Below, piece after piece: positions 3,270 through 64,000 of a DNA stretch of 64,000 nucleotides. The translations under genes and the position numbers were made by a program. The notes under the pieces were generated by a model. The model searched no databases. It was given only the letters and a program-made list of their open reading frames with translations, and was not told the DNA's origin. The DNA is from Candidatus Saccharimonadales bacterium (GTDB taxonomy: Bacteria; Patescibacteriota; Saccharimonadia; Saccharimonadales; JAGPDM01): the NCBI GenBank assembly GCA_044227985.1, contig JBGAVT010000001.1, positions 6,216 to 70,215 on the forward strand, in the 5' to 3' direction. How positions within the stretch are numbered: position 1 is the first letter of the stretch; every line of letters begins with the position of its first letter.

Positions 3270-3473
3270 TTATATAGTTGAATAATCCAACAATAAACAA
3301 TAATTATGGTACTACTACATTCTATTGAGTGACAAAGAATTTACTTGCATGAAGTACCATTCATATATTACAAATCATTACATTTATACAAGTTATTAAA
3401 TAAATTAATTAATACAAAAAGATACCAATCTACAACAATAATTTTAGAAAAAATTTCTCAAACAAGAACAGTT

Positions 3474-4238: not shown

Positions 4239-4313
4239 TATGTTTATTCTACATGAAGACCAATGTCTAGATAAACTAAGCAATCTAAGTACGTTATCTA
4301 TATAATTAAGTTC

Positions 4314-5869: not shown

Positions 5870-5870
5870 G

Positions 5871-7241
5871 ATGAAAACAATTGATATCGTTAGACGATCA
5901 ACTCGTAGTTTATTTAGCGCTAAAGCCCGTACAGTATTGACGACTCTTGCAATTGCAGTAGGTGCTTTTACGCTTACGCTGACTCTGGGTGCCAGCAACG
6001 GTGCTCAGAAGTATGCCGATGAGATTGTTTCTGTTAACTTTGACCCAAGTGAGCTAATCGTTACAAAAGATAAGAACATTTTTCGAGCTGCTGATGACTC
6101 CAAACCTAAAGAATTCGAAGAAGGTTTTGGTACGATTGCTACACCGAGCGGGATAGACCAACAGATAAAATTACTCGATGAAAATGACATTTCGGGTTTA
6201 GAGGAAATAAAAGGAATTAGTTCTGCTCGACCAGCTATTAATCTTAGTCTGAAATATATCACTCGTGATGGTCAAAAAAAATACGTTGGTACCGCCCAAG
6301 AATACAGTAACTACCGACAACCGGAACTACTAGCTGGTTCGATTCCTGATAGGCTAGAAAATCACACTATCATCTTGCCCGAAGGTTTTGTCGAGCCACT
6401 CGGCTTTGATTCTGCCAAAAAGGCAGTTGGTAAGAAAGTTCGTCTAGCCGTTGAGAATAAAGCCAAACAAGCAGATAATCTTAGTTCACTTTTGCGACAG
6501 AATAGTCCTTCGGATTTTAATAAAATAAATAATGTTGATAATGTACTCGAGGAAGAATATAAAGTAATTGCCGTAACAAAGACACCAGGAAATCTAGTCC
6601 AACCCGGCACGGCACTAAATCTTAATATTAATGGCGATGACCTACAACGATTGAACAATTTTAAGACCAAAAACAGCGATAGTTTTGGGCGCTATATCAG
6701 TGCCTATGTTAAAGTAGAAAACTGGCAAGATACTAATGATCTACAGCAGGCAAAAAAAATGGTTGAAAGCAAGGGTTACAACGCACAAAGTGTCATGGAC
6801 ACACAGAAAATAATCACCCAAGTTATCGGGGTTCTTCAGGGGATTGTGACAGTGTTTGGAGTGATAGCTGTCATTGCATCAATATTTGGTGTTATCAACA
6901 CAATGTATATAAGCGTACTGCAGCGAACTCGTGAAATCGGACTGATGAAAGCGCTCGGTATGCATAAACGAAACATCAATTTACTGTTTTTAGTTGAAGC
7001 CGGACTACTTGGGTTATTTGGAGGTGTACTGGGCTCAATTATTGCGGTGATTGCAGGCACACTTCTTAACCCTGTTATCTCAGATACACTAGAGCTCGGC
7101 GATCAAAATCTACTGATATTTAACGCCATACAGATTATTGGTTTGATCAGTGCCCTAGTCACTGTGGCTGTTCTCGCTGGCCTATTCCCTGCTCGAAAAG
7201 CATCAAAACTTGATCCTATAGAAGCACTCCGAACAGAATAA
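5871..7241 (+). CDS. ABC transporter permease, FtsX/MacB-type with large extracytoplasmic domain
   Basis: N-terminal TM, about 270-aa periplasmic segment, C-terminal FtsX-like 3-TM bundle (GVINTMYISVLQRTREIGLMKALG). ATG at 5871, 1 nt after the ATPase stop. Confidence 0.85.
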   Translation: MKTIDIVRRSTRSLFSAKARTVLTTLAIAVGAFTLTLTLGASNGAQKYADEIVSVNFDPSELIVTKDKNIFRAADDSKPKEFEEGFGTIATPSGIDQQIKLLDENDISGLEEIKGISSARPAINLSLKYITRDGQKKYVGTAQEYSNYRQPELLAGSIPDRLENHTIILPEGFVEPLGFDSAKKAVGKKVRLAVENKAKQADNLSSLLRQNSPSDFNKINNVDNVLEEEYKVIAVTKTPGNLVQPGTALNLNINGDDLQRLNNFKTKNSDSFGRYISAYVKVENWQDTNDLQQAKKMVESKGYNAQSVMDTQKIITQVIGVLQGIVTVFGVIAVIASIFGVINTMYISVLQRTREIGLMKALGMHKRNINLLFLVEAGLLGLFGGVLGSIIAVIAGTLLNPVISDTLELGDQNLLIFNAIQIIGLISALVTVAVLAGLFPARKASKLDPIEALRTE

Positions 7242-7392
7242 TCGTAAAGATTTTTTCATAATTTTAACTTCTCTCAAACTTTTTATGTTTTAAAAACTAT
7301 AATGCTCATGCTTGCAAATTTTATAGCCAAAGGACTAATCTGCTACTTAGGACGGGCTGGGGGTCTCACAAACTAATTAATTGGAGGTCTTT

Positions 7393-21190: not shown

Positions 21191-22723
21191 TTACTCCCAC
21201 TCAATAGTACCGGGAGGCTTACTTGTTACATCGTAAACTACACGATTAATGCCACGGACTTCGTTCACAACTTTGGTTGATATATCTTGCAAAACTTTGT
21301 GCGGGAATTGGTACCAATCGGCGGTCATAACATCATCACTAGTAACACAACGAATAGCAAGGACTGATTCGTACGTCCGTTCATCGCCCATAACACCGAC
21401 TGTTTTGATAGGAAGTAGCACGCTAAAAGCTTGCCAAATTTCATCGTATAAACCAGCCTGTTTGATCTGATCAATTACGATTGCATCAGCATTCTGTAGT
21501 AGTTGAACTCTATCTTTAGTGATCTCGCCGAGAATTCTAACAGCTAAACCAGGACCTGGGAACGGATGTCTGTTAACTAAATCAGCTTTAATGCCTAGCT
21601 CACGGCCAACTTTCCTAACTTCATCCTTAAATAATTCACGCAGAGGTTCAATTAAGCTAAGATCCATCTTTTCTGGCAGACCACCAACATTGTGATGGCT
21701 CTTAATTACCGAGCTCGGTCCGTGCACCGAAACGCTCTCAATTACATCAGGATACAAAGTACCTTGGACAAGAAAATCTACTTCGCCGAGCTTATTAGCC
21801 TCTTCCTGGAAAACTTCAATAAATTCATTGCCAATAATCTTACGCTTCTTTTCTGGGTCAGTTACGCCGTCTAGCAATTTCAAGAATCGATCAGATGCAT
21901 CAACATGTATTACATTCAATCCTTCGACATCCTCGTACGCTTCCATGACTTGCTCGGCTTCGTCTTTACGAAGCAAACCGGTGTCGACAAAAATACAGGT
22001 TTGCTGATCGCCAATCGCTTTAGCAACCAGGCTGGATGCAACTGAGCTATCAACTCCACCACTCAATCCAGAAATCACTTTCTTATCACCAACTTTGGCT
22101 TTAATTTGTGCGACGGTGTCATCGATAAAGCTACTCATGCTCCAATCACCAGCGAAATCTGATATCTCAAACAAGAAGTTTTTAATCAGTTGTGTGCCAT
22201 CAGCTGTATGAGTTACCTCAGGGTGGAACTGGACGCCATAGCGTTTTAAAGCTTCATTAGATGCGGCTGCAATTGTGTTTTTTGTCTGGGCAATTTGTTC
22301 AAAGTTCTCTGGCAAAGCTGTAACTTTATCGAAGTGGCTCATCCAGACAGTTTTGTCATTAAAGTCCTTAAACAGATCAGAGTCTTTGGTTGTGATATCG
22401 GCCCGCCCATATTCACGTTTATCTCCCCGACCGACGGTTCCACCGTAGTGCTTAGCCATTATTTGTAGACCGTAGCAGATTCCGAGCATCGGAATCTCTA
22501 GATCAAATACTTTCGGATCTGGGGCAAATGGGACTTCGTCGGCGTGGACACTGCCAGGACCGCCACTCAAGATTATCGCTTTTGGATTTTTGGCTTTTAT
22601 CTCTTCTAAGCTGGTCGAAAACGGCACAATCTCGGCGTAAACTCCCTGTTCCCTGACTCGTCTAGCGATTAGCTGTGTGTACTGAGCTCCGAAATCTAGT
22701 ATCAATAAAAGTTCATGTTTCAT
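21191..22723 (-). CDS. guaA: GMP synthase (glutamine-hydrolysing)
   Basis: Class-I GATase N-domain ([18 protein letters not shown]…, catalytic GICYG) and PP-loop ATP-PPase SGGVDSSV; C-terminal …PPGTIEWE. Confidence 0.95.
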
Positions 22724-25145: not shown

Positions 25146-25173
25146 CTTGATACTTGATACTTGATACTTGATA
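25146..25173 (+). repeat. Four perfect tandem copies of heptamer CTTGATA immediately upstream of murC
   Basis: gCTTGATAcTTGATAcTTGATAcTTGATActaaaag. Each unit contains the -35-like hexamer TTGATA. Confidence 0.9.
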
Positions 25174-25182
25174 CTAAAAGCT

Positions 25183-26433
25183 ATGCATGTATATTTTTCT
25201 GGGATCGGAGGGGCTGGGATCGGTCCTCTCGCGCTATTGGCTCTCGATAGTGGCTATCAAGTAAGCGGTAGCGACATTACACACAGTTGGTTCATTGATG
25301 AACTAATAGCTCGAGGCGCACAAATAAATATCAGCCTGCCGGACAGTATATTTCTTAGTGAGAAAATAAAAGCAGTTAATCCCCCAACCTGGCTAGTGCA
25401 AACTTCTGCGCTACCAAATAACCATCCAGAATTAGTACTAGCAAGAGAAGCTGGATTACAAACTAGTAAGCGTGCCGAATTTTTATTACATATTCTGAAA
25501 AAACACAACCAAAAGCTTATCGCCGTCAGCGGTACCCACGGAAAAACTACTACAACCGGAATGCTGATTTGGTTGGCGAGACAATTAAATATATCTGTAA
25601 GCTACTTAATTGGTACTAATATTTCTTGGGGTCCAAACGCGATGCTAGCAGCAAGATCTCGTTGGTTTATATATGAGGCAGATGAATACGATCGAAACAT
25701 GCTACAATTTCACCCAGAAATTGCAGTCGTTCCAAGCCTTGATTATGATCACCCAGACATTTATCCGACAGTCGGAGATTACCGCCAGGCGTTCATACAG
25801 TTTGCTCAACAGAGTCAAGTAATCATCACTAGTCCAGAGATTGAACACCTGCAAGAAACTGAAGCCTTATATCCCGACAGTGCGTTACTTGATGATATAA
25901 CTTTACCGGGGATTCACAGTCGGAATAACGCTTCGCTTGCTATCACTGCTTTTAAGCAGGCGGGGTTATCTAATGATACTAATGCATTAATAACAGCTAT
26001 CAACAATTTTCCAGGTACAGCTAGACGATTTGAAAAACTAGCCGATAACTTGTACACCGATTATGCTCATCATCCGGTTGAAATAGCTGCCACACTGCAA
26101 CTTGCTCGAGAGATTTCTGATAATGTTGTGGTGGTGTATCAACCACATCAGGACAGAAGACAACGTGAAATCCGAGACCAATATGCTGATGCTTTCAAGC
26201 ATGCCAGTAAAATCTACTGGCTTCCCACCTATGAGCCAATAGGTCGCTCTAGTCAGGCCCCCTTAACTCAAGCTGAGTTGATGACATCACTCAACAACAG
26301 CGAAATTGCCAAGTCTGCAAGCTTGGATGAAAGCCTCGTCGATATTATCAACAAAGAACGTACAGAAGGTAAGCTTGTGCTGTGTTTTTCAGCTGGAACG
26401 CTTGATGCTTTTTTACGCGATAATCTAGTCTAA
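25183..26433 (+). CDS. murC: UDP-N-acetylmuramate--L-alanine ligase (MurC-type Mur ligase)
   Basis: N-terminal HVYFSGIGGAGIGPLA, P-loop GTHGKTTTTGM, EADEYDRNMLQF, DYDHPDIY – Mur ligase motifs in MurC order. ATG at 25183 preferred over the TTG at 25168 that lies inside the repeat. Confidence 0.7.
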   Translation: MHVYFSGIGGAGIGPLALLALDSGYQVSGSDITHSWFIDELIARGAQINISLPDSIFLSEKIKAVNPPTWLVQTSALPNNHPELVLAREAGLQTSKRAEFLLHILKKHNQKLIAVSGTHGKTTTTGMLIWLARQLNISVSYLIGTNISWGPNAMLAARSRWFIYEADEYDRNMLQFHPEIAVVPSLDYDHPDIYPTVGDYRQAFIQFAQQSQVIITSPEIEHLQETEALYPDSALLDDITLPGIHSRNNASLAITAFKQAGLSNDTNALITAINNFPGTARRFEKLADNLYTDYAHHPVEIAATLQLAREISDNVVVVYQPHQDRRQREIRDQYADAFKHASKIYWLPTYEPIGRSSQAPLTQAELMTSLNNSEIAKSASLDESLVDIINKERTEGKLVLCFSAGTLDAFLRDNLV

Positions 26434-27255: not shown

Positions 27256-27891
27256 TTACGTTCGTTCAGCCGCCAGGATGCCAATAGGTAAACCTGCATC
27301 GCGCCAGAACCGCTCGTACTTAGTCTGGTAAAAGATTGGACCGTCACCTAACTCTGGAAGATCAGTCTCAAGTCCGACAATTTCAAAATCAGGATGATTC
27401 TCGACCGACTCAGCACCACTAGCAAGCAACATTGAATTATCAGTTTTTAAAAAGAATTGAGATTTTGGTGCTAAGACTGCTTTGTAGCCATCAAGGAAAT
27501 TCTTATTTGTCATGCGGCGTTTCACCTGGCTCTTTTTAAAATACGGATCAGGAAACGTCATCCAAAATTGTGAAATGCTCTGGCTTGGAAAATGTGCGCT
27601 GATTGATTCAGCATCGGCATTCAAGAAACAAATATTTTCTAGCTTTTCCTCACTAGCTTGTCGAGCTCCCTGCCAAAGCCGGTCGCGTTTCTTGTCAATT
27701 GCCACAATCTGGTAATTTGGGAAATTTCTGGCATATTCTAGGGAAAACTCAGCACTACCGGCGCCCATCTCGACCACCAATGGTTTGTCTGGTAGCTTAA
27801 AGTCACACCAACTATTACTATCGAAGCAATTGTTTGACTGGTGAAATTTTGCATACTTATATAACTTGCGTCGTCGATGTCCCATTTGCAT
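27256..27891 (-). CDS. trmB: tRNA (guanine46-N7)-methyltransferase
   Basis: SAM-binding VVEMGAGSAEF and FPDPYFKK (FPDPW-type) motif. Confidence 0.85.
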   Translation of the reverse strand: MQMGHRRRKLYKYAKFHQSNNCFDSNSWCDFKLPDKPLVVEMGAGSAEFSLEYARNFPNYQIVAIDKKRDRLWQGARQASEEKLENICFLNADAESISAHFPSQSISQFWMTFPDPYFKKSQVKRRMTNKNFLDGYKAVLAPKSQFFLKTDNSMLLASGAESVENHPDFEIVGLETDLPELGDGPIFYQTKYERFWRDAGLPIGILAAERT

Positions 27892-39601: not shown

Positions 39602-40399
39602 CTAATACAGGAAGTATATGTTAGCTTTTGTTTGAATCAACTTATCCCGAATTAGCCCTTCCAGGGCCTCTTCCAACCGTTGATCAAAAAACTCGTGTTC
39701 AAGTTGTGTCAGGCTTTGCGGACCTCTGGAAACAAAACGAAGAATGCCTGCTCTAAGCTGTCGAGTACTTCCCACAAATGTTGATTGCTTGGTATATACA
39801 CTAGCCTTCCTATGTGTTGTAAGGCCTTGTTTTTTAAGCGATGTGCCATAGTCCATCAAAGCCCAGTACCATTCGCGCGGGTTATCATGATTAAGCACTT
39901 CGATGACTTTAGATAATATCTCTTTTTCACTAGTCTTATCTTTATCAGCAAAAAAATGATGAATTATGACTGTCCGAATATTTGTTTCCACAAAGCCAAT
40001 AGGTAGATTCTTTGAATATACAAGAATTGCAGCGGCAGTATTGTAGCCTATGCCTGGAAGCTCACTAAGCAATTTCGGATCCGTAGGCGTTTCTACATCC
40101 CAGTTACGCCTGCAGATTTCTTTGGCTGATTGATGGATAAAACGAGCACGACGATAGTAACCAAGCCCCTGCCATGCGCTAACGACATCCGCTTGGGTGG
40201 CCCGTGCAAGCGTAACTACACTAGGAAACTTTTGCAAAAAACTTCGGTAATGATCAACAACCCGTGGTGCCTGTGTTTGCTGTAACATAATTTCGCTCAC
40301 AAGGATTTTGTAAAAATCTGTTGTACTACGCCAAGGAAAGTCTCGTTTACTATGTCTATAAAATGCCCATACGAGATTATGGAAGCTAGAGACGGTCAT
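39602..40399 (-). CDS. HhH-GPD DNA glycosylase, MutY/adenine-glycosylase-like, lacking the 4Fe-4S cysteine loop
   Basis: SEIMLQQTQ motif, helix-hairpin-helix LPGIGYNTAAAIL, catalytic D. No C-x6-C-x2-C-x5-C cluster in the C-terminus. Overlaps tyrA by 14 nt. Confidence 0.65.
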   Translation of the reverse strand: MTVSSFHNLVWAFYRHSKRDFPWRSTTDFYKILVSEIMLQQTQAPRVVDHYRSFLQKFPSVVTLARATQADVVSAWQGLGYYRRARFIHQSAKEICRRNWDVETPTDPKLLSELPGIGYNTAAAILVYSKNLPIGFVETNIRTVIIHHFFADKDKTSEKEILSKVIEVLNHDNPREWYWALMDYGTSLKKQGLTTHRKASVYTKQSTFVGSTRQLRAGILRFVSRGPQSLTQLEHEFFDQRLEEALEGLIRDKLIQTKANIYFLY

Positions 40400-41135
40400 G
40401 AATTTGCTGTGCTTGATCCAAAAAACGCTTTCGGACTTCTGAGGCGTACGGATTGGCAGATTCCACCGTCAGGAACAAAGCGTCAGAATGTTGTTTTTCC
40501 TGTTCAGCTAGCGCAAGAAGTTTTTTATAGTAACCGGTAGTCAGAGAGGCTTCAGAAACACCGAGTTCAAGTAGACTTCGTCCAATAAAAAATGTAAGGC
40601 CTTGAATGGTAGCCATCTGTCTATCATGCTCCATTGGAGAAATTTCGACTACTTCACCTCCTTTTTCATCGATAATCGAAGTTAGCGTCTTTGTCCAAGG
40701 CGTTTGACGAAGTTCGTGGAAGACCCATTGGCGACTCTTCAGATCACCGCCTGTACTTTGGGGTCCGAACAATGGGTGGCTAGCAATCAGTCCGACATCT
40801 TCGGAGAAAGTTCGTAACATAATCTCACTCGGTCGCTCCTTAACCGAAAGTACGTCGATTATTGTAGCTCCAGGTTGAACGATTGGCGCAAGTTGTTGGC
40901 ATACAATTTCGAAATCAGAAAATGGGACTGCAATCCAGATCAAGTCTGCCTTGCCTGCCATCTCAAGATTAACTCTCGTTGTTTTTGCGCCCTCGAATTG
41001 GCTATCATTAGGATCAACCGCAACAACTGATTGGAACCCAAAGCTTTCAAGAACATGCGCTAATAATTGTCCAAATGGCCCAAAACCAACTATCGAAGTA
41101 GTCGATTGTTTTAGGTTAGGAAGTTGGCTGCTCAT
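40386..41135 (-). CDS. tyrA: Prephenate (or arogenate) dehydrogenase
   Basis: NAD Rossmann IVGFGPFGQLLAHVL, TyrA core (…IASHPLFGPQS…). Confidence 0.8.
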   Translation of the reverse strand: MSSQLPNLKQSTTSIVGFGPFGQLLAHVLESFGFQSVVAVDPNDSQFEGAKTTRVNLEMAGKADLIWIAVPFSDFEIVCQQLAPIVQPGATIIDVLSVKERPSEIMLRTFSEDVGLIASHPLFGPQSTGGDLKSRQWVFHELRQTPWTKTLTSIIDEKGGEVVEISPMEHDRQMATIQGLTFFIGRSLLELGVSEASLTTGYYKKLLALAEQEKQHSDALFLTVESANPYASEVRKRFLDQAQQIHDRL

Positions 41136-41140
41136 ACGTT

Positions 41141-42055
41141 TTAAATTTTTGTTAGCCAGTTGTCGCTTAATTCGTGTTCACCACGAACAATGGCTTCAAA
41201 ACTATCACTAATCTGCTTAGTTATTTTTCCGGGAGTTTGGCTAATTTCACGTCGATCAATTCCTGCTACCCATGAAACCTTAGCAGCGGTACCTGTCACA
41301 AAGGCTTCTTCAGCAGTATATAGTTGACTACGACGGATAGGGCTTTCTTCGATCGGTATGTTATGCAGCGCTGCCAGCTCAACCACACAGCGGCGAGTTA
41401 TGCCTTCGAGTAAATCTCCGCCTAGACCTGGTGTCAGTAACACACCATGACGAACAATAAATAAATTCATGACTGCGCCTTCGCCGACATCACCCTTATG
41501 ATCAAGCATAATAGCGCTGTCAAAGCCGTTTGCCTGAGCCTCTTCAATCGCCATTGCTGCATTGATGTAAGCACCTGAAGCTTTGGCTTTAGCAGGGATA
41601 GCGTTGTCCGGCACCCGAATCCAACTACTGGTAGCAAGCTGCAATCCTTTACTACTATCGAGGTAATCCTCAAGATTCATAACATATACCGCTAACTGAT
41701 ATTCACCTGAGATCTTAGGTCCAAGTGCTATATCAGATCGATAGATAAATGGTCGTATATAGATATCCTGGTTTGGGTTATTAGCCTTCACAGTATCACT
41801 GATAATATGAGCTAATTTATCGGCAGTCAGTTTGTATGGAAAACCAAGAATCTTAACACTTTCGATCATACGCTTGGCATGATCAGCTAATCGCAGGATT
41901 GCCACAGAGCCATCAGCTTGTTTGTAGCCACGGAGTCCAGCAAATGTAGCTATAGCATACTGCAACCCTGCTGTAGCAATTGGTACATTTGCATTCTTGA
42001 AGTCGATAATCTCACCTTCAAAATATGCTTTTTCTAAATAATCATTATGCGTCAT
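41141..42055 (-). CDS. Class-IV (fold type IV) aminotransferase, BCAT-like; probable aromatic/branched-chain aminotransferase
   Basis: GLQYAIATFAGLRGY (BCAT Y-x-x-x-x-F-E-G-x-R pattern), …EAFVTGTAAKV… (class-IV PLP lysine region). Confidence 0.75.
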   Translation of the reverse strand: MTHNDYLEKAYFEGEIIDFKNANVPIATAGLQYAIATFAGLRGYKQADGSVAILRLADHAKRMIESVKILGFPYKLTADKLAHIISDTVKANNPNQDIYIRPFIYRSDIALGPKISGEYQLAVYVMNLEDYLDSSKGLQLATSSWIRVPDNAIPAKAKASGAYINAAMAIEEAQANGFDSAIMLDHKGDVGEGAVMNLFIVRHGVLLTPGLGGDLLEGITRRCVVELAALHNIPIEESPIRRSQLYTAEEAFVTGTAAKVSWVAGIDRREISQTPGKITKQISDSFEAIVRGEHELSDNWLTKI

Positions 42056-42345
42056 TTCCGTAACTCCTCAATTTCTGCTTCAATTGCCATCTCATGAAGC
42101 GTATCCCAAATCGTATCAATCCGTCGAATTGAAAGTTTATGTTTTGCAGCTAATTGCCGCTGTTTTTGCATGACCTTTTTCCATCGAGCAAGATTCTTAA
42201 TGGGAAGTTTATGTTTATGTTTAATAATCGCTACTTGCTTTACCGCTTTTTGTCGCTTCACCAAAAGACTCATCAGAGTCGTGTCAATTTGGTCAATCTC
42301 ATGACGTAAATCTGCTAATTCTTTCGGTTCTCTCATGCTACCCAT
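42052..42345 (-). CDS. Chorismate mutase (AroQ class, monofunctional)
   Basis: LRHEIDQIDTTLMSLLVKRQKAVKQVAIIK… is the AroQ helical signature. 97 aa. Confidence 0.8.
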   Translation of the reverse strand: MGSMREPKELADLRHEIDQIDTTLMSLLVKRQKAVKQVAIIKHKHKLPIKNLARWKKVMQKQRQLAAKHKLSIRRIDTIWDTLHEMAIEAEIEELRK

Positions 42346-42381
42346 GATAGCACAAATCCTTTCAATTTTATGATGTAGTAA

Positions 42382-43464
42382 CTAAAGTTTACGTGCATTT
42401 TGTTGCAAAAGTGCATCAAGCAATACAATAGCCATCATAGCCTCAACAATTGGCACCGCTCGTGGCAACACTGCAGGGTCATGACGACCTTTAAGATTCT
42501 CTAACGTAACCTCGTTACCGTCACTATCGACAGTATTTTGAGTTTTTAAAACTGTTGAGGTTGGCTTAAAGGCTACATTGCACACAATCGGCTCACCATT
42601 GCTGATACCGCCCTGCACACCACCTGAATTATTTGTTTTTGTGCCGATTTTACCTTTTTTAGCAACAAACTCATCATTGTGCTCAAGCCCTGTCATACGA
42701 GTTCCGCCAAAACCGCTACCAATTTCAAAACCCTTAGTAGCGTTGATTGAAAGCATCGCCTTTGCTAGCTCAGCTTCAAGTCGGTCATAAACTGGTTCAC
42801 CTAGACCAACAGGAACATTTCGAGCGACAACCGTGATCACACCACCGACAGAGTTTCCATCCTGTTTCATCCGTTTAACTAGCTCAATCATCTTTTCAGC
42901 CGCAACAGGATCAGCACAACGGACAATATTAGCTTCTACGTTATCTCGAGTAAATGAATCAACATCAAGCTCAGCGGTAATTTCGTGGATTTGTTTAACA
43001 CTGGCAACAATCTCAATACCATTTTGAATCAAAATTTTGCGAGCTATCGCACCAGCCATAATTCTGGCTACAGTTTCACGAGCACTGCTACGTCCACCAC
43101 CCGCAACCGCACGTCGACCGTACTTCTGCTCATAAGTAAAATCTGCATGACTGGGTCGATAGACTTTTGCGAGATTGCCATAATCCTGAGAACGTTGATC
43201 TTTATTACGAATGAGCATGGCAATCGGCGAGCCGAGTGTGATTCCTTCGGAAATTCCAGATAGAATTTCTACCTGATCTGGTTCATCTCTGTCTGTTGTA
43301 ACAACACTTTGGCCAGGTCGACGGCGATCAAGTTCAACTTGAATATCTTCTAGAGATATCTCAATCCCGGCAGGGCAACCGTCAATAACAACACCGACTC
43401 CAGCCCCGTGACTCTCACCAAAACTAGTAATTTGATACAAATTTCCAAAACTATTTCCGGGCAT
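42382..43464 (-). CDS. aroC: Chorismate synthase
   Basis: [18 protein letters not shown]…; AGAGG core. ATG at 43464 with AGAGGAG RBS 7 nt upstream. Confidence 0.9.
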
Positions 43465-43465
43465 A

Positions 43466-44134
43466 TTATTCTCCTCTTTCAATTACTTCTAGCATAGCAT
43501 CAACGCTCATTTGACCCGGAGCAACACTTGAACCAGTTGCGACAAACATTAATGCACTACCTCTTTTCAATGCCTCAACTCGCAGACCATCATCATCACC
43601 GCTCATAGGGATCAATGCAAAATTTTGTTTTGGATAATCTGTAAATAAACTAAATAATCGAGCAGACTCAGCGCTGGAGCTCACCCGACAAGCAATTTTA
43701 ATGATCGATGGACTATGCTGTTTAGCAATTTCTATAAGATCATTCAGCTTTTGCATAGTCGGCGTTCGTTCAAAATTATGATACGACAATAGTCTTTTTT
43801 CTTGAACTATTTTTTCTACTAGCATTTTATTTGAGATATCAATATCGATGTAAATAGTATTTTTGAGCCCAGATAATTCCTGTAATAATCGAGTGCGTTT
43901 GTCTTCATCCCCATCGAACCTCCCGCCTTCATTTACGCTTCGGAGTGTTACTATAACTTTCTGTCGAACTAGTTTAATTGCTTCAACAATGGCTTGCTCA
44001 TTAAGCTTATTCAAATAATCAAGACGCCATTCAACTAACAAAATTTCTTCGGGTAGCTGGCGAAACTGCTCAAGGCTTACAACAATTGTTGACTCTGCGA
44101 CCACACCGACAATTCGATCTACTAGTTGGCTCAT
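43466..44134 (-). CDS. aroD: 3-dehydroquinate dehydratase, type I
   Basis: Type-I TIM-barrel pattern (…VVSLEQ…VEWRLDYL…TLRSVNEGG…YIDIDIS…). Confidence 0.8.
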
Positions 44135-56455: not shown

Positions 56456-59400
56456 TTATCCGTTTAGCAATGCGCTCTGCAATCGTCGTCGGCTGATAAC
56501 CCAGCGTCGGATACTTGCACCGACGGCTGCGATCACGCTACCGAGTCCGAGCATTCCAGCACCTGTTTTTGGCAGAATGCTTGGGCCAACGATTCCTGGT
56601 GTTGAACCTGGAGTCTCTGGACCTGGAGTTACTGGAGCTTTGACAATCTTGACTTGAGCTTCGTCGCAGTCGTAACGATCAGCATTCATTGCGCCGCCTT
56701 TACAGACTTTGGCACACTCTTCGCGACTTGACTCAGGTACGTAACCTTCGTCATTGTCAGCTGCACAGACATAGTTAGTAACAACTTTGCCTTCGCCGTC
56801 AGCAGTAGCTTTCGCGTTAAACTCGATGTAAACGCTCTGACCTTTACCAATTGACTTGATAACATTCTTAAGGTTTGAACCTTGAGCAGCTACTAGTTCA
56901 GCTGGTAGGTAGTCACGAACTGATACGTTTTCAAGTGTCATGTTTCCAGTGTTAGTAAATCGGATGATAAATCGTACGTTACTTCCACTTTGAACTTCGA
57001 CAAGCTCTAGAGCTTTATTGAAACCGTTGGCACCAGTCGCGTTCAAGTCAGTTGTAACTTTCTTTTCAACGTCGAGCATTGGTTTTTTGTTAACTTCTAC
57101 TTCTGCAGTGTCGCAGTCTTCGAGGTCAATTTTACCATCGTCGTTGGTGTCGTCAGTTACACAGACTTTGTTAATACCTGAGTTCATTGCTTTCGCATTG
57201 ATCTCGAAGTAAACGCTCATGCCTGGCTTAAGTTCTTTGATGACCGCTTCAGTTGGATCACCTGAGACATACTCGATGCCTTTAGGTAGGTAATCTTTAA
57301 CCTTGACGTTTGTTAAGGTAACGTCACCAGTGTTAGTGACTTTGTAGATGTAGCGAACGGTGTCGTTCGGGCTGACTACTGCTTTTTCAGAAGCTTTGTC
57401 GTAACCATCTTTACCGATAGCTTTCAGGTCAGTTGTAACCCGCTTCTCAACATTGAGTTTTGGATTAGCTGTAACCGTTACGGTTGCAGTATCACAATCA
57501 TCAGCATTGGTAGGCTCGTTTGGATTAACTTCCTTAGCGTTTACACAAGCTGTATTAACGAGGTTACCAGCTTGGTAAGCAACTACTTTAGCTTTGAGGT
57601 TGATGCTGATACTCTGACCAACTTTAAGCTCAGGGATGATGTAGCTAAGGTTTCGCTTAGCGGCATCGATTGAGCCTTTGTCAGTGCTGATGAGTGTTAC
57701 TCCAGCTGGAGCTGCATCTCGTACGGATACGTTCTTAAGATCGACTTCGCCAGTATTCTTAACGACAAGTTGGTATGTAAACTCAGCGCCTACTTTAACT
57801 TCCTTGTTTTCTACGCCATCGACTTTTTTGTCGATTGAGACGTTAGGTTTCTTGATGTCTATAACAACATCATCACACTCGTCTTCAGGTGTTTCCACTG
57901 CGTCAACACAAGCTGTGTTCTTAACGCTGCCAGTTGCACCGGCAACTTTTGCCTTGATCGAAATTTCTACGGTCTGGCCAACTTTGATGTTAGCGATAGT
58001 AGCGTTGTAGCTCTTGCCATCGGCAGATACGCTACCTTTATCAGCTGAGAGGAACTTTATGCCTGTTGGGGCCTTGTCAGTTACCTTCGCATTTGTCAGG
58101 TCAACATCACCAGTATTTTTGACTTTGAGCTTGTAAACAAACTCTTGGCCTTCAACACCATCAGTGATGCTTGAGGTTTTCTCAATATCAATCTTTGGAT
58201 TTTGCTTAGTAACGGTAACGATTGCATCGTCGCAGTCATCAGCTTCGTTAGGCTTAGTTGGGTTGACTTCAGGAGCATTGACACAAGCAATGTTCTTAAG
58301 CTCACCAGCCACGTAGGTTTTAACGATACCAGTTAGTTTGAATGTCTTGCTCTCACCAATTTTTAGTGACGGAATCGTGTATTCCCAGTCAGCGCCTTCA
58401 ATTGTTGCAGGGTTACGGATTGTGCCGAAGTCAGCTTTAGTAAGTGTTACACCTGCAGGTGCAGAGTCAGCAACCTTTACATTCTTGAGATCTACATCAC
58501 CAGTGTTTTTGACAACTAACTGGTAAGTGAACTCTTGCCCAACTTTGACTTCTTTCTTTTCTACGTTGTCGACTTTTTTATCGATTTTAACGTTTGGAGT
58601 CTGTACTTTGACAGTTACAACTGCATCGTCGCAAGCGTCAACTGCGTCAGGCTTGGTTGGGTTAACTTCTTTTGCATTTACGCAAGCGATGTTAACAAGG
58701 TTACCTGCTTTATAGGCTTTAACCACACCGACTAAGTTGAAAGTCATGCTTTGACCTTTTTTCAGTTCAGGAATTGTGTAGTTCCAAGTAGTTGGAGTTT
58801 TGATAGTACCTTTGTCGGCACTCTTCAATGTAACACCAGCTGGAGCCGTATCACCGACAACAACGTTCTTTAGATCGATGTCGCCTGTGTTCGTTACTTT
58901 AACTTGGTAGGTAAAGTTCTGACCGACTTTGACTTCTTTCTTTTCTACGTTGTCGACTTTTTTGTCGATAGTAACGGCTGGAGTAGGAATTTTAACTTCC
59001 GCACCGACGTAACATACTTTGTTACCAGCAGTTGTCTGAACGGTTACTTTGACTGCATATTTGAATGACTTAGCATATGTGTGTTCAACAGTGTTAGTTA
59101 AAGAACTTGTGTTAACGGTTTGACCTTTGTCGTCACCGAAGTCATAGACGTAACCTGTAACTTTGGCGCCGTTTTCAACAGCAGCCTTTGTAGTGAACTT
59201 AAACTTGTTGTAGCTTAGCTTTGTTGCGGTTAAGCTTTCGCAAGTAGCGCTAGGTGTTGGGATAGAAACATCAACTCCTACATTACAGACCTTGTCTCCA
59301 ACAGTTGTCTTGACTATTACGCTAACCGCATATTTAAATGATTTTGCGTAGTTGTGATCAACTGTGTTTGTCAAAGAATTTGTGTTTACTGTCTTAGTTT

Positions 59401-60481
59401 GGTTGTCTCCAAAGTTATATACATAACCTGTGACCTTGGCACCGTTAGCAACAGAAGCTTTGGTATTAAATCGGAAACTAGTTGTTGAGAGTTTAGTTGC
59501 GGTGAGGCTTTCGCACTTAGCACTAGGCGTTTGTACTGGCGGAGGAGTAACTGGTGTCACAGTAGCTGTGTCACATTTGTAGCCTGGAATTTCTTTGGCT
59601 ACAGTACAAGCGGTGTTAATAACCTTTGTCTTAGCGCTAAATCTTGCTCTAACGTCGATCTTTAGTTCATCACCAGGTTTAAGAGAGTACCATGCTGCAC
59701 CAGTATTATCTGTGCTGCCCCTGGTTACTACTCCACCACTTTTCTTCTGCCAGCTTCCGCTAACATAGGTTAGACCATTTGGTAGCTTGTCAGAAAGTGC
59801 ACCGTTCAATGTAACCTGACCATTATTAGTAGTCATAGATACGAATCGAACCACTTCACCTGACTTAGCTGAAACGTTTTCTTGTCCATTCCAAAAAGCA
59901 GCATCTGTTGTTGGACCAAGATCTTTTACTACCTTCTTTGAAATCGTGTAGCTTGGTACCTTTGGTGTCTCAGGACTAGTTGGGTGTGCCTTAATTGGAT
60001 TACCGCAAGATTTTACGATTGCCCATTTAAATTGACCATTAACAACCTTAACAAATGCAGGTAGTCTATCAGCTGCAAATGAATCATTGGTTGTACGGAC
60101 AAAAAAGGTTGTACCGTCAATCGTCTTTTGGGTAGAATTACCAATTGACTGTCGACCCATGCTCCATGCACCGGTCGCTACAACTTTATTGTCGACAACA
60201 ACAGTACCGTCTTTGTAGACCATGCCGTTGACAACGCCAGCGCTATCATTTGGATTGATACCGTAGTAATTAAACATGGTTTTAACACCACCACTATTAT
60301 TATTGTAAGCACCTTGAGCTTCGCCCAAACTACTTATACCACACGTGATTACTGAGTTTTCACTACAGTCACCAGCCTTAGCATTACTGATTGGGACCAG
60401 TATTGCCAGGAAAAGCATTAAAAGCCCTGAAGCCATCAGAACTTGCTTGTTTCCTAAAAAATGTTTGATGTAGGTTAACAT
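56456..60481 (-). CDS. Very large cell-wall-anchored surface protein (signal peptide, tandem Ig-like/DUF11-type repeat domains, C-terminal LPXTG sortase signal)
   Basis: ATG at 60481 with GGAGGTG RBS gives signal peptide MLTYIKHFLGNKQVLMASGLLMLFLAILVPISNAKA. Two roughly 100-aa repeats (…CESLTATKLS…VTGYVY(N/D)FGD…). At least five repeats of (I)DKKVDNVEKKEVKVGQxFTYQ…KNTGDVDLKN (DUF11-like). C-terminus LPKTG + hydrophobic helix + RRWVISRRRL. Confidence 0.8.
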   Translation of the reverse strand: MLTYIKHFLGNKQVLMASGLLMLFLAILVPISNAKAGDCSENSVITCGISSLGEAQGAYNNNSGGVKTMFNYYGINPNDSAGVVNGMVYKDGTVVVDNKVVATGAWSMGRQSIGNSTQKTIDGTTFFVRTTNDSFAADRLPAFVKVVNGQFKWAIVKSCGNPIKAHPTSPETPKVPSYTISKKVVKDLGPTTDAAFWNGQENVSAKSGEVVRFVSMTTNNGQVTLNGALSDKLPNGLTYVSGSWQKKSGGVVTRGSTDNTGAAWYSLKPGDELKIDVRARFSAKTKVINTACTVAKEIPGYKCDTATVTPVTPPPVQTPSAKCESLTATKLSTTSFRFNTKASVANGAKVTGYVYNFGDNQTKTVNTNSLTNTVDHNYAKSFKYAVSVIVKTTVGDKVCNVGVDVSIPTPSATCESLTATKLSYNKFKFTTKAAVENGAKVTGYVYDFGDDKGQTVNTSSLTNTVEHTYAKSFKYAVKVTVQTTAGNKVCYVGAEVKIPTPAVTIDKKVDNVEKKEVKVGQNFTYQVKVTNTGDIDLKNVVVGDTAPAGVTLKSADKGTIKTPTTWNYTIPELKKGQSMTFNLVGVVKAYKAGNLVNIACVNAKEVNPTKPDAVDACDDAVVTVKVQTPNVKIDKKVDNVEKKEVKVGQEFTYQLVVKNTGDVDLKNVKVADSAPAGVTLTKADFGTIRNPATIEGADWEYTIPSLKIGESKTFKLTGIVKTYVAGELKNIACVNAPEVNPTKPNEADDCDDAIVTVTKQNPKIDIEKTSSITDGVEGQEFVYKLKVKNTGDVDLTNAKVTDKAPTGIKFLSADKGSVSADGKSYNATIANIKVGQTVEISIKAKVAGATGSVKNTACVDAVETPEDECDDVVIDIKKPNVSIDKKVDGVENKEVKVGAEFTYQLVVKNTGEVDLKNVSVRDAAPAGVTLISTDKGSIDAAKRNLSYIIPELKVGQSISINLKAKVVAYQAGNLVNTACVNAKEVNPNEPTNADDCDTATVTVTANPKLNVEKRVTTDLKAIGKDGYDKASEKAVVSPNDTVRYIYKVTNTGDVTLTNVKVKDYLPKGIEYVSGDPTEAVIKELKPGMSVYFEINAKAMNSGINKVCVTDDTNDDGKIDLEDCDTAEVEVNKKPMLDVEKKVTTDLNATGANGFNKALELVEVQSGSNVRFIIRFTNTGNMTLENVSVRDYLPAELVAAQGSNLKNVIKSIGKGQSVYIEFNAKATADGEGKVVTNYVCAADNDEGYVPESSREECAKVCKGGAMNADRYDCDEAQVKIVKAPVTPGPETPGSTPGIVGPSILPKTGAGMLGLGSVIAAVGASIRRWVISRRRLQSALLNG

Positions 60482-60700
60482 ACCTAGCACCTCCTCTTAA
60501 TTAAATGTTACTCCACCCGCACGCAGCCTCACGCTGTTATGTACGAATTCGCTAGCTATGATATAACGGTCTTGTAAAATTGTCAAGCATTATTTCATTA
60601 AAGTGCGTTTTATACAAAATACTGTTTGTTTTTATAATTACCATTAAAGGCTTGTCAGGACACCTTTGCAAGCATAAACGTCATTAATCTGTTGTTATAT

Positions 60701-62020
60701 TTAATAACAACATTTTTTAATCAGCGAGAACAAGGACTGATTGTGTGACATTGGCATGTTAAGATCGAAGTCGTCGGCTTTCGGAACATCGAACGGTAAA
60801 TGATATTCTGCATCCGGGAATTGGTCTTGTGCTTGATTATATGCCCAACGTAACTCTTCAACCTCACCTACACACTCTAGAGGCTTTGCGATATCATCTA
60901 CGCCAAGTAAGCCTTTATACGTATCTAGTAATTCTGGTTTTTGGAATAGATTACCACCTAGCATATGTTCTAATTGTTCTGGTTTGAGGAATGGAGCAAA
61001 TAGTAAAAATGCATTGGCACATTTCGGGCATTCGCCGCACCATCGGAGTTTTTTATTATCAACTCCCTGCTTGTAGTTAGCGACATTGCACGAAGAGAAC
61101 TTTTGGCCATATTCCACGAAAGCGTGATTGACGAATAACTCGGCAATCTTCACTTCATGAAACGGTCGCAATGGCGAACCGTATTCTATGCCTGCTGAAA
61201 CATAATTAGAAATATAATGCTGCATCAACTGTTCAGCTGGAAGTGTCTTTGACCACTGATGTTGGACTGCAATATTACCAATATACCCGCTCGGTTCAAC
61301 ACCCTCGTTGCCAATCGCCAACAAAACACGATTTAAATTACTAGCTACCATTTGCAAGAGCGCATGAGAACTAACTATGTATGTCACTGGAACGTGGCCA
61401 TTCAAACCACCGAGTTTAATGGCTTGCTTAAGATTTACAATATCCAATGTTCTTTTAGAGTGGACTATGGGTTTATCAAAACTGTCTAGGACTTTTGGAT
61501 GTGTATTCGTTGTAGATTCATACCAGGGCTGAAATTCCTGTTGACAGTCTTTTAATAATGTAGCTAGCAATAAAGAATCTTTACCGCCGCTTTGAAGTAC
61601 AAGGTTTCCAGCACCCTGATATTTAATTGTCGAGTCGTTTATTAATCCACCAAATTCAAACGAGATTCTTCCTTCAGGATTTAGTTGGTTCTCGAACCAA
61701 AACTGACTCATTCCATCAGTAAAAACTGTCGTTAAAAATTCAGATTGCCATTTATCAGGAATAGCTTTACTAAATTCAAAATTACTCGTTGGGAAAGCTT
61801 TGTAATAAGACGTTGCCGTTACGTAAAATGCTAAAATCAGAGCCTTTTGGAAAATGGGATTTGTTAGAAGCTCTTCTGGGTTTTCAGTTTCTATAGAAAC
61901 TGTCTCGCGAAAGCTAAGCGCAGGATTCGTATGTTTGTAGTTGAACCACGCTAGCTTCGCATTTGGATCGAAGCCATAGTCATCGAAAATGAAGGTATTA
62001 TCCTGATTAAAGGCATTCAT
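60701..62020 (-). CDS. PP-loop ATP-pyrophosphatase superfamily protein (QueC / N-acetyl-sugar-amidotransferase-like) with C-terminal Cys4 zinc motif; function unknown, translationally coupled to murD
   Basis: SGGKDS PP-loop at about residue 145 (NLVLQSGGKDSLLLATLL); C-terminal C-x16-CGECPKC resembles the QueC-type CGxCxxC zinc site. 4-nt ATGA overlap with murD. Confidence 0.55.
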   Translation of the reverse strand: MNAFNQDNTFIFDDYGFDPNAKLAWFNYKHTNPALSFRETVSIETENPEELLTNPIFQKALILAFYVTATSYYKAFPTSNFEFSKAIPDKWQSEFLTTVFTDGMSQFWFENQLNPEGRISFEFGGLINDSTIKYQGAGNLVLQSGGKDSLLLATLLKDCQQEFQPWYESTTNTHPKVLDSFDKPIVHSKRTLDIVNLKQAIKLGGLNGHVPVTYIVSSHALLQMVASNLNRVLLAIGNEGVEPSGYIGNIAVQHQWSKTLPAEQLMQHYISNYVSAGIEYGSPLRPFHEVKIAELFVNHAFVEYGQKFSSCNVANYKQGVDNKKLRWCGECPKCANAFLLFAPFLKPEQLEHMLGGNLFQKPELLDTYKGLLGVDDIAKPLECVGEVEELRWAYNQAQDQFPDAEYHLPFDVPKADDFDLNMPMSHNQSLFSLIKKCCY

Positions 62021-63318
62021 AATTCTGCTACCAGTCGCTTAAATTCATTTCCTCGGTCAGTGAAATCAGAAAACATATCAGTACTGGGACTACCAGGACT
62101 AAATAACACCACATCGCCAGCTTCTGCTAGTTCTTTAGCTAACTTAAAAATGTCGTTAAATGAATCAGTTTTAGCTATGTAAGCTTCAACATTTAATCGA
62201 TTAAGCGAACTGCCCCATTTCTTAGCATTTGCGCCGTACGTGATTACCGTCTTTAGCTGTGTCATAGCAGACAATTGTGCGGATACTTCTTTGTAATCCT
62301 GACTACGTTCAGCACCACCAAGCAGTAGAACAACTGGAGATTTTAGGCTCGAAACTGCTGCAATGGTCGCACTCGGGTTTGATGAATAGCTATCATTAAC
62401 ATATGATATTCCATTTTTATTCGGCAATAACTCCATCCGATGTTCGAGTGGACTAAAATGTTCAAGAGTCGTTTCGATGATACTTTTGTCTTGGATTATT
62501 GGCCAGACAACTGAAAGAGCGGCACAAATATTCTCAGCATTATGATCACCAAGAAGCTGAACTTTATTCCGTTCAATAATCTTTTTCTGTCGGTAATATA
62601 TTGCCGTAGTATTGTAGTGACTGGTTTTTGGCTGGTTGTATGATTCAACACATCCGGCATTGGAATCTATTGTGAGTTGCTTGCTGACTTCACTTTGAGC
62701 ATTAAAAACTAACCGATCATCCAAAGTTTGAAACTTAGTAACCCTTGCTTTTGCTTGATGATAGTCCTCTAGTGAGTGATGAATATCGAGGTGATCTTGG
62801 CTGATCATTCCGATAACTGCAGTTTGCGGACTCATGGTCACGTCCCAGAGCTGAAAACTGCTCATTTCATAGACAACAATTTTTTTATTTGCATCTGAGC
62901 TATTAATTTCATCAAGCACATTCAGTGCTGGTTGACCTATATTTCCCACCAACCAAACCTGATATCCATCTGCTCGTAATATTGCAGTTATAAGGCTACA
63001 GATAGTACCTTTTCCTTTAGTGGCCGTTACACCAATAATAGGAACTTTACATTCTTCTAAGAAAAATTGCGTTTGGCTGGTTGTCCTATCTGCCGGCAGA
63101 AGATTGGGGTCAACGGATGGCGAACGCCACGCTAGATCAAAAGAATCAATTTCTTCTAGCCAATCATCACCTATATGGCTATCTAGTTCTCGATTATTAA
63201 CAGATTTTCTATCTAGAATTACCGGCTTGATACCATGTTGCAGTAGATATTGTGCTGTAGATTTACCCTCAACTCCATAACCAACTACGGCGTGCCTCTG
63301 GTGTTCGTGTAACGTCAT
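62017..63318 (-). CDS. murD: UDP-N-acetylmuramoyl-L-alanine--glutamate ligase (MurD-type; could be a MurD2-like L-Glu ligase)
   Basis: Mur-ligase motifs in MurD arrangement: GVTATKGKGT, LLGDHNAENICAA, VNDSYSSNPSAT, LLLGGAERSQDY, VLFSPGSPSTDMFSDFTDRGNEFKRLV. Confidence 0.8.
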   Translation of the reverse strand: MTLHEHQRHAVVGYGVEGKSTAQYLLQHGIKPVILDRKSVNNRELDSHIGDDWLEEIDSFDLAWRSPSVDPNLLPADRTTSQTQFFLEECKVPIIGVTATKGKGTICSLITAILRADGYQVWLVGNIGQPALNVLDEINSSDANKKIVVYEMSSFQLWDVTMSPQTAVIGMISQDHLDIHHSLEDYHQAKARVTKFQTLDDRLVFNAQSEVSKQLTIDSNAGCVESYNQPKTSHYNTTAIYYRQKKIIERNKVQLLGDHNAENICAALSVVWPIIQDKSIIETTLEHFSPLEHRMELLPNKNGISYVNDSYSSNPSATIAAVSSLKSPVVLLLGGAERSQDYKEVSAQLSAMTQLKTVITYGANAKKWGSSLNRLNVEAYIAKTDSFNDIFKLAKELAEAGDVVLFSPGSPSTDMFSDFTDRGNEFKRLVAEL

Positions 63319-63508
63319 AAAACTAGTATAGCAAAGCTAAAGGGGTCAATAGTTTCAAGTTTCAGTATGCCTTGGGTTGGTAAATTCGAGTCTTAATATT
63401 TTCCTTACTATGACAAATTACAATCTTTTAAGTGTTGGATTCAAAGGGTAAATATTGCTGTTTATATTAAGTTAATGGTTAGATTGATTTATGAAAATTT
63501 AAGAAACA

Positions 63509-64000
63509 TTATTTGTTGTTTCGAGAATGCCTATCTGAACTATTCATCGGTGTAGTGATACCCTTTGCACGCTTTAAAGCCACCTCACGCATATCATTGT
63601 AACGGTCGAACTCATCGACGATCTCCCTGCCTAAAATCTCTTCAACCACATCCTCCATGGTAATAACACCGACCATTTCCTTGAATTCATTAACCACAAT
63701 GTACATATGATTTTTAGTTTTCATAAACGCGTTCAAGACATGATCGAGTTTTTCGAGTTCATTCACAAAATAAACGTCGCCCTCAGCTGCTTCGCCAGCA
63801 CGGATTTTGTCACGAACATTATGCATATCACGCCAGAATAAGATGCCAACGACATGATCAAAATCTACAGAGTAAACCGGAAAACGACTGTGGCCACTAT
63901 CGTGTAGTTCATTTAATAACTCAGGACTAAGGACTGCACCTTCTTCAACTGCAACGACGACACTACGCGGGGTCATAACTTCTTCGATAGTACGATCACC
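63509..64000 (-). CDS. CorC/TlyC-type (CNNM family) CBS-pair plus transporter-associated domain protein, C-terminal part; gene continues past the window end
   Basis: …IEEVMTPRSVVVAVEEGA… (CBS pair) and C-terminal CorC_HlyC-like domain (…MVGVITMEDVVEEILGREIVDEFD…). The ORF is open to the window edge. Confidence 0.65.
   Translation of the reverse strand, partial: GDRTIEEVMTPRSVVVAVEEGAVLSPELLNELHDSGHSRFPVYSVDFDHVVGILFWRDMHNVRDKIRAGEAAEGDVYFVNELEKLDHVLNAFMKTKNHMYIVVNEFKEMVGVITMEDVVEEILGREIVDEFDRYNDMREVALKRAKGITTPMNSSDRHSRNNK

Follow-up and report, generated by a model that had tools for sequence, protein, structure and literature searches.

The locus described here raises the question of where a member of the Saccharibacteria obtains the D-glutamate (D-Glu) of its peptidoglycan stem peptide. 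We analyzed a stretch of 64,000 nucleotides (nt) of Candidatus Saccharimonadales bacterium (assembly GCA_044227985.1, contig JBGAVT010000001.1, positions 6,216 to 70,215), hereafter the window, to which all coordinates refer. In it, a gene for a MurD-type ligase runs directly into a gene for a PP-loop protein of 439 amino acids (aa), which we identify below as a MurL homologue. We estimate a probability of about 80% that the two genes form a translationally coupled murD-murL unit serving as an alternative route to the D-Glu of the stem peptide. In this pathway, the ligase would add L-glutamate (L-Glu) to UDP-N-acetylmuramoyl-L-alanine (UDP-MurNAc-L-Ala), and MurL, judged by its family membership, would then convert the terminal L-Glu one way to D-Glu, consuming one ATP and forming AMP. 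This MurL chemistry has been shown for the enzymes of Xanthomonas oryzae, Micromonospora, and Salinispora. The MurD2/MurL route was described in 2017, and published lists confine it to Xanthomonadales, a few Alphaproteobacteria, and rare actinomycetes; distant MurL orthologues are noted for cyanobacteria, a fungus, and an amoeba (PMC8788868, PMC5808125). The pair belongs to a pathway whose family models and chemistry are already known, and it is not a new kind of system. The elements of the pair are as follows.

62017..63318, minus strand: murD-type ligase, candidate MurD2 (L-Glu-adding UDP-MurNAc-L-Ala ligase), open reading frame (ORF) of 433 aa.
60701..62020, minus strand: murL homologue, PP-loop protein, ORF of 439 aa.
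62017..62020, minus strand: ATGA, read directly, shared by the stop codon of murD (TGA) and the start codon of murL (ATG), indicating translational coupling.

Both ORFs and their overlap were verified as originally predicted, and the sequence read upstream of the murL ATG held no Shine-Dalgarno-like purine run.

The 439-aa protein was compared with NCBIfam, where it matched NF041275 ("MurL_Xanthmoales", UDP-N-acetyl-alpha-D-muramoyl-L-alanyl-L-glutamate epimerase) with an E-value of 2.9e-58 and 197 bits. The alignment was collinear and nearly full length, pairing residues 7-395 with positions 7-391 of the 447 in the model. Our Pfam scan, run on a set without MurL models, gave only a sub-threshold match to DUF7411; in precomputed Pfam assignments, MurL_N (PF26299) and MurL_epimerase_C (PF26298) were present in 120 of 120 homologues among the matches listed. 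The closest homologue among these matches (P0001, 77% identity), a "hypothetical protein" of Candidatus Saccharibacteria, carries both domains. A protein from a Xanthomonadales metagenome-assembled genome (MAG), P0312, lies above the NF041275 equivalog cut-off (730.6 vs. 700 bits) and shares 32% identity with the 439-aa protein over 352 residues. Because 2576 members were found at E <= 1e-3 when 1.84 billion cluster representatives were searched with a profile, the MurL family is large and already catalogued. QueC models, in contrast to NF041275, gave no match to the 439-aa protein at E <= 1 in Pfam or NCBIfam. A sequence search of the PDB found no chain at E <= 10, and hence no MurL structure has been solved. 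Membership of the 439-aa protein in the MurL family is thereby supported at the level of sequence.

The family name is missing from many public records. The NCBI name "endonuclease domain-containing protein" stands on the MurL-family proteins P0312, P0307, P0325, P0348, P0358, P0359, P0363, and P0370, and a JGI record names the homologue P0100 "7-cyano-7-deazaguanine synthase". The "endonuclease" and QueC names look like systematic misannotation.

The motifs expected by the original prediction, a PP-loop and a zinc motif resembling that of QueC, were both located, together with a third conserved element.

61574..61591, minus strand: SGGKDS, residues 144-149, within the PP-loop NLVLQSGGKDSLL (residues 138-150), predicted binding site of the ATP alpha/beta-phosphates.
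61019..61090, minus strand: Cys311-x16-Cys328-x2-Cys331-x2-Cys334 (SSCNVANYKQGVDNKKLRWCGECPKC), predicted structural zinc site of the QueC type.
60863..60877, minus strand: ECVGE, residues 382-386, in which Cys383 and Glu386 are invariant and may act as acid/base residues in proton exchange at C-alpha.

SGGKDS and the four-cysteine (Cys4) motif were each found in 81 of 81 Saccharibacteria homologues. Across the wider family, GGKDS and all four cysteines are invariant, the first PP-loop residue being Ser in Saccharibacteria and Gly (GGGKDS) in the Xanthomonadales-type clade. An alignment of 26 members, drawn from Saccharibacteria, Xanthomonadales, other Proteobacteria, Actinobacteria/Thermoleophilaceae, Sericytochromatia, and unnamed metagenomic lineages, set the 439-aa protein beside P0312 and 24 further diverse sequences and contained 37 invariant positions. 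These include G145, G146, K147, D148, and S149 of the PP-loop; C311, C328, C331, and C334 of the putative zinc site; R190, N207, H209, H254, Q255, K258, E263, and R285; and K379, P380, C383, V384, G385, E386, and E389. Judged from the alignments, the conservation of the PP-loop and Cys4 motifs is more than chance would give.

The protein therefore shares with published MurLs the NCBIfam and Pfam family with full-length collinear homology, the GGKDS, Cys4, and ECVGE motifs, two histidines, and a partner gene for a MurD-type ligase. It differs from Xanthomonadales MurL in its 32% identity, its score under the NCBIfam cut-off, and its SGGKDS in place of GGGKDS. The published distribution lists of MurL do not include Saccharibacteria or other members of the candidate phyla radiation (CPR).

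An AlphaFold2 model of the 439-aa protein, computed with 42 homologues, reached a mean predicted local distance difference test score (pLDDT) of 94.2 and a predicted template modeling score (pTM) of 0.93. Its closest solved fold was QueC (3bl5, 12% identity), and the other fold neighbors were NAD synthetase, asparagine synthetase, and N-acetyl-sugar amidotransferase. The predicted structure shows the catalytic core of MurL as a QueC-type PP-loop ATP pyrophosphatase with a putative Cys4 zinc site, and the structural part of the original prediction was therefore right. With QueC and the QueC-like Cap9/QatC, the protein has in common the PP-loop fold with an SGGxDS-type motif and the predicted Cys4 zinc site, whereas the identity is only 12-17%, no sequence model matches, and MurL carries two further domains, one at the N-terminus (about 130 aa) and a helical one at the C-terminus (about 100 aa). 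The reaction would also end differently, in epimerization and not in the formation of an amide or nitrile.

MurL was reported to consume one ATP, to form AMP, and to work only in the L to D direction; it was also said to "lack known conserved domains", its mechanism being unclear and adenylation of the alpha-carboxylate being hypothesized (PMC8788868, PMC5808125). A PP-loop core is what this hypothesis needs, and the modeled fold is compatible with the formation of AMP and pyrophosphate. Considering the PP-loop fold and the published release of AMP, we propose that the GGKDS loop would adenylate the alpha-carboxylate of Glu. Adenylation would acidify C-alpha, either directly or via a 5(4H)-oxazolone formed from the Ala-Glu amide; Cys383/Glu386 and/or His209/His254 would then abstract the C-alpha proton and deliver it back on the other face, and hydrolysis of the D-acyl-adenylate would make the reaction irreversible. 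This scheme of adenylation, C-alpha proton exchange, and D-adenylate hydrolysis is the most likely one, in which the choice of bases and the oxazolone intermediate are inferred.

To investigate linkage to murD, we scanned a single genome for each GTDB species and found relatives of the 439-aa protein at 244 loci. The best 80 of the 244 all came from Saccharibacteria/Saccharimonadales MAGs (two of them labeled Nomurabacteria and several "bacterium"), and one relative (isolate SRP286056_co3_490, contig CAZUNB010000019.1) was 100% identical over MurL residues 1-419. We examined 83 Saccharibacteria loci, of which 81 included upstream DNA and hence were testable for linkage. A murD homologue lay immediately upstream of murL at all 81, with a 4-nt ATGA or GTGA overlap at 61 and an in-frame MurD-MurL fusion at seven. 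Conservation of this adjacency had been named beforehand as part of a test that could refute the assignment, and the adjacency was conserved without exception. An apparent murD-murL gap of 1.36 kilobases (kb) in a Saccharimonadales MAG (L078) is a second murD fused to murL: the locus (3346..7278) holds two MurD genes in tandem, one free-standing and, after it, one that forms part of a MurD-MurL fusion of 856 aa (4708..7278). Its free-standing MurD has the motif DDSIATTP, Glu at the position of Asp182 in Escherichia coli MurD, and Lys at that of Lys348, and both of its MurDs are without the Lys found at position 319 in E. coli.

Fusions also occur outside Saccharibacteria and in both orders, as MurD-MurL (P0157, 878 aa) and as MurL-MurD (P0166, 844 aa), with both halves of each confirmed against NCBIfam. 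The order murD then murL, here with an ATGA overlap, is that of Saccharibacteria, whereas murL precedes murD2 in the loci examined from Xanthomonadales, Thermoleophilaceae, and Sericytochromatia. The original prediction erred in placing murL downstream of the MurD2 gene in Xanthomonas, since murL is upstream of murD2 in the Xanthomonadales-type loci examined. In one Thermoleophilaceae locus (L086, 6734..7522), murL and murD2 are followed by a class IV aminotransferase gene that overlaps the murD2 end, and this gene could encode a D-amino-acid transaminase alongside MurL.

Is the ligase a MurD or a MurD2? It scored 292 bits against the murD model TIGR01087 (cut-off 212) and contains the Pfam domains Mur_ligase_M and Mur_ligase_C. 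TIGR01087 does not separate MurD from MurD2, and the MurL fusion partners pass it as well. Overall identity does not separate them either, being 31% to the MurD2 beside an equivalog-grade Xanthomonadales MurL and about 30% to canonical MurDs. The published substitutions from E. coli MurD to X. oryzae MurD2 are Asp182 to Glu197, Lys348 to Arg358, Ala414 to Pro433, and Leu416 to Phe435 (PMC8788868). Glu197 and Arg358 together set the L-Glu specificity of X. oryzae MurD2; the E197D/R358K double mutant uses D-Glu, and E197D shifts the enzyme toward D-Glu, while mutation of Pro433 and Phe435 leaves its specificity unchanged (PMC8788868). Moreover, E. coli MurD K319T accepts L-Glu (PMC8788868). Our residue alignment is validated by the MurD adjoining the equivalog-grade Xanthomonadales MurL (L085), which shows exactly Glu, Arg, Pro, and Phe at positions 182, 348, 414, and 416. 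The corresponding residues of the window ligase are as follows, by E. coli numbering.

62794..62796, minus strand: Asp175 at position 182 (E. coli Asp, L085 Glu), a canonical-type residue.
62386..62388, minus strand: Tyr311 at position 319 (E. coli Lys, L085 Ile), NDSKATN becoming NDSYSSN.
62305..62307, minus strand: Arg338 at position 348 (E. coli Lys, L085 Arg), MurD2-type.
62080..62088, minus strand: Pro411-Ser412-Thr413 at positions 414-416 (E. coli Ala-Ser-Leu, MurD2 Pro433-Ser-Phe435); Pro411 at position 414 (E. coli Ala, L085 Pro) is MurD2-type, and Thr413 at position 416 (E. coli Leu, L085 Phe) matches neither.

Position 319 is Phe, Tyr, or Ile in all 78 MurL-linked Saccharibacteria MurDs, and in five other MurL-linked ligases it is Ile in four and Phe in P0157; in our alignment, the solved canonical MurDs of E. 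coli, Streptococcus agalactiae, and Pseudomonas aeruginosa have Lys. The clearest MurD2-like signal in the ligase is the loss of Lys319. Like MurD2 of X. oryzae (XOO_1320), the window ligase has the MurD fold, a MurL partner, the Arg and Pro equivalent to Arg358 and Pro433, and no Lys at the K319 position; it differs in Asp for Glu197, Thr for Phe435, and Tyr for Ile at the K319 position. Most likely, to judge from these residues, the ligase works like MurD2, with only part of the published signature.

Together, the NF041275 homology, the MurL Pfam domains in relatives, the invariant residues, and the linkage and fusions with murD support the MurD2/MurL-like pathway put forward in the original prediction, and the pair probably explains the supply of D-Glu for the Saccharibacteria wall. 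Several observations weigh against this reading. First, the 197 bits of the 439-aa protein are far under the 700-bit equivalog cut-off of NF041275, and for this reason the Saccharibacteria MurL clade is, as far as such scores indicate, a distant branch relative to the assayed MurLs. That cut-off is tuned to Xanthomonadales, and the MurLs adjoining murD2 in Thermoleophilaceae and Sericytochromatia also fall below it (492-515 bits); a score under it limits automatic naming, not family membership. Second, the ligase has Asp175 where MurD2 has Glu197, and Thr413 agrees with neither enzyme type. Of the 78 MurL-linked Saccharibacteria MurDs, 66 have Asp at the 182 position and 12 have Glu, which is also the residue in the MurD2s of Xanthomonadales, Thermoleophilaceae, and Sericytochromatia. 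Because Asp is kept where X. oryzae MurD2 has Glu, the L-Glu specificity of the ligase is only inferred. Third, Arg at the 348 position is not exclusive to MurD2, since D-Glu-using streptococcal MurDs have it too; the MurD of Streptococcus mutans has Arg there, with Lys330 at the K319 position, and uses D-Glu (PMC8788868).

The source of D-Glu itself has to be considered as well. MurI and D-amino-acid transaminase (Dat) reach the same end point as MurL, D-Glu at position 2 of the stem peptide, whereas their folds are unrelated to it, their substrate is free glutamate, and they need no ATP. A phmmer search with E. coli MurI against the six-frame ORFs of the window and of the 83 related loci (912 kb) found nothing significant. 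A murI or dat gene may lie elsewhere in the genome, outside the 64-kb window. An active MurI has reportedly been found in Candidatus Saccharimonas aalborgensis, and on that report MurI is not absent from the whole phylum; these two points also count against the pathway proposed here.

The best surviving alternative holds that the ligase is a canonical or bispecific D-Glu-using MurD, that its D-Glu is supplied by the host or by a murI or dat gene lying beyond the window, and that MurL only corrects mis-incorporated L-Glu or serves as a back-up. The Asp that the window ligase and most Saccharibacteria MurDs carry where E. coli has Asp182 and X. oryzae MurD2 has Glu197 would fit it, as would the shift of the X. 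oryzae E197D mutant toward D-Glu, the D-Glu use of the Arg-containing S. mutans MurD (PMC8788868), and the MurI said to exist in one Saccharibacterium. However, Lys319 is lost in all of the MurL-linked MurDs, the obligate linkage and recurring fusions exceed what occasional repair would lead one to expect, and neither MurI nor Dat was found in the 64-kb window. We consider this explanation unlikely, although it deserves more weight than the others.

Much less probable, to the point of being hard to credit, is amidation, the second hypothesis of the original prediction, in which the PP-loop enzyme would adenylate the Glu alpha-carboxylate and transfer ammonia to give iso-glutamine at the stage of the nucleotide precursor, as an analogue of MurT/GatD. 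The nearest solved fold, QueC, has its adenylate attacked by ammonia, the other fold neighbors are amidating enzymes, and a wide distance separates the Saccharibacteria clade from the MurLs that have been assayed. On the other hand, the protein retains every residue that does not vary in the assayed clade, with no sign of a change of function, and the assayed MurLs epimerize without ammonia. No glutaminase partner or domain is present, and no gene for GatD or another glutaminase adjoins the murD-murL pair here or in relatives. MurT/GatD resembles the pair in modifying the Glu alpha-carboxylate through ATP activation and in that MurT is a Mur-ligase homologue, but it differs from MurL in acting on lipid II, in using an acyl-phosphate, and in needing the glutaminase GatD; the window ligase scored only 14.3 bits against the MurT model (cut-off 800). 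Furthermore, the ligase changes are associated with L-Glu use and are not required for amidation, and the D-configuration would be left unexplained. Amidation thus found no support, and membership of the protein in the MurL family makes it unnecessary.

Finally, that the PP-loop protein is a QueC-, TilS-, or ThiI-like enzyme of nucleotide or tRNA modification standing beside murD by chance, as the one record bearing a QueC name and a weak match to the TilS N-domain (E 0.025, 14.5 bits) might suggest, is effectively refuted by the family assignment and by the linkage to murD at every testable locus with seven fusions, the similarity to QueC being at the level of fold only and the QueC models and PDB chains having given no match.

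Returning to the MurD2/MurL pathway, a broader statement can be ventured, to which we give slightly less than an even chance. Saccharibacteria in general would obtain the D-Glu of their peptidoglycan from MurD2/MurL as the standard source, perhaps with no other; the recurrent fusions would reflect channeling of the L-Glu intermediate; and MurL would be the first PP-loop enzyme (QueC-like, with a Zn-Cys4 site) to use an adenylate for stereoinversion and not for the transfer of N or S. The searchable literature contained no paper linking MurL or MurD2 with Saccharibacteria or CPR, and none on the MurL enzyme that links it with the PP-loop; the single joint mention of MurL and PP-loop, from 2010, is older than the enzyme's name. 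Natural MurD-MurL fusions, and the loss of Lys319 as a mark of MurL-linked ligases, were likewise not found there.

The surroundings of the pair were also examined. The gene following it encodes a wall protein ending in an LPXTG-type signal, as was originally predicted, and a MurC-type ligase gene lies elsewhere in the window.

56456..60490, minus strand: ORF of a wall protein, 1344 aa, with a C-terminus of LPKTG, a hydrophobic stretch, and RRR.
60558..60586, minus strand: sigma-70-like promoter TTGACA-17-TATCAT of the wall-protein gene, 11 of 12 matches.
25168..26433, plus strand: MurC-type ligase, best match murC TIGR01082, 255 bits, below the 335-bit equivalog cut-off.

Given a strong promoter-like site of its own, together with an AGGAGG ribosome-binding site ahead of its start, the wall-protein gene is a separate transcription unit, and the promoter marks the 3' boundary of the murD-murL unit; a scan for intrinsic terminators 3' of murL found none. 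The wall protein contains many repeats, and its homologue in L001 has CLIPPER/CLIPPER_2 (PF01345/PF24346) repeats. A wall-protein gene also lies 3' of murL in the closest relatives (L001-L003). On the other side, the sequence upstream of the murD ATG (63319..63345) has TATACT 7 nt upstream and no Shine-Dalgarno-like sequence, and a minus-strand promoter scan upstream of murD gave no full sigma-70 match. The murD mRNA may lack a leader or carry only a very short one. A CBS-domain protein (63509..63976, minus strand) is encoded upstream of murD and seems to be the C-terminal portion of the product of a CNNM/CBS transporter-type gene extending beyond the window; the same synteny with murD is seen in the closest relatives (L001, 7455..8495).

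The original prediction had placed murC away from the pair. The lone position of a MurC-type ligase gene was borne out, the gene standing alone among unrelated genes; its best match is murC, with a score under the cut-off, and the TIGR01082 match falls in two separate stretches. A divergent MurC may be relevant to the choice of the first residue of the stem peptide.

A run of aromatic amino-acid biosynthesis genes occupies 40386..44134 on the minus strand.

43466..44134, minus strand: 3-dehydroquinate dehydratase-like ORF, by ORF reading only.
42382..43482, minus strand: chorismate synthase-like ORF, by ORF reading only.
41141..42055, minus strand: IlvE-type aminotransferase, NCBIfam equivalog cut-off passed.
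40386..41135, minus strand: prephenate dehydrogenase, NCBIfam match below cut-off.

Saccharibacteria are usually described as amino-acid auxotrophs, and such a run would be unusual. Its class IV aminotransferase, the only one in the window, lies between the prephenate dehydrogenase gene and the chorismate synthase-like ORF. It was considered as a D-amino-acid transaminase and rejected, having passed two IlvE equivalog cut-offs and failed the Dat model (78 vs. 277 bits). Ordinary housekeeping genes of the window include those for a MutY-like glycosylase (39602..40399, minus strand, below the equivalog cut-off), GMP synthase (21191..22723, minus strand, 798 bits), and the tRNA m7G46 methyltransferase TrmB (27256..27891, minus strand).

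The murD-murL unit is conserved in at least 80 Saccharibacteria species, sometimes as one fused polypeptide, and offers an answer to how these epibionts supply D-Glu to their walls. Public names such as "hypothetical protein", "endonuclease domain-containing protein", and "QueC" miss the MurL assignment, and since the genes are misnamed in public records, metabolic reconstructions of CPR will score the D-Glu supply as missing. The PP-loop fold and zinc-site assignment gives MurL a testable mechanism, and the loss of Lys319, which appears to be a common marker of MurL-linked MurDs, could help to predict ligase stereospecificity from sequence. The result is thus useful both for the cell-wall biology of CPR and for the enzymology of MurL. 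If MurD2 and MurL do provide D-Glu across Saccharibacteria, this would be a replacement of glutamate racemase on the scale of a phylum in reduced CPR bacteria.

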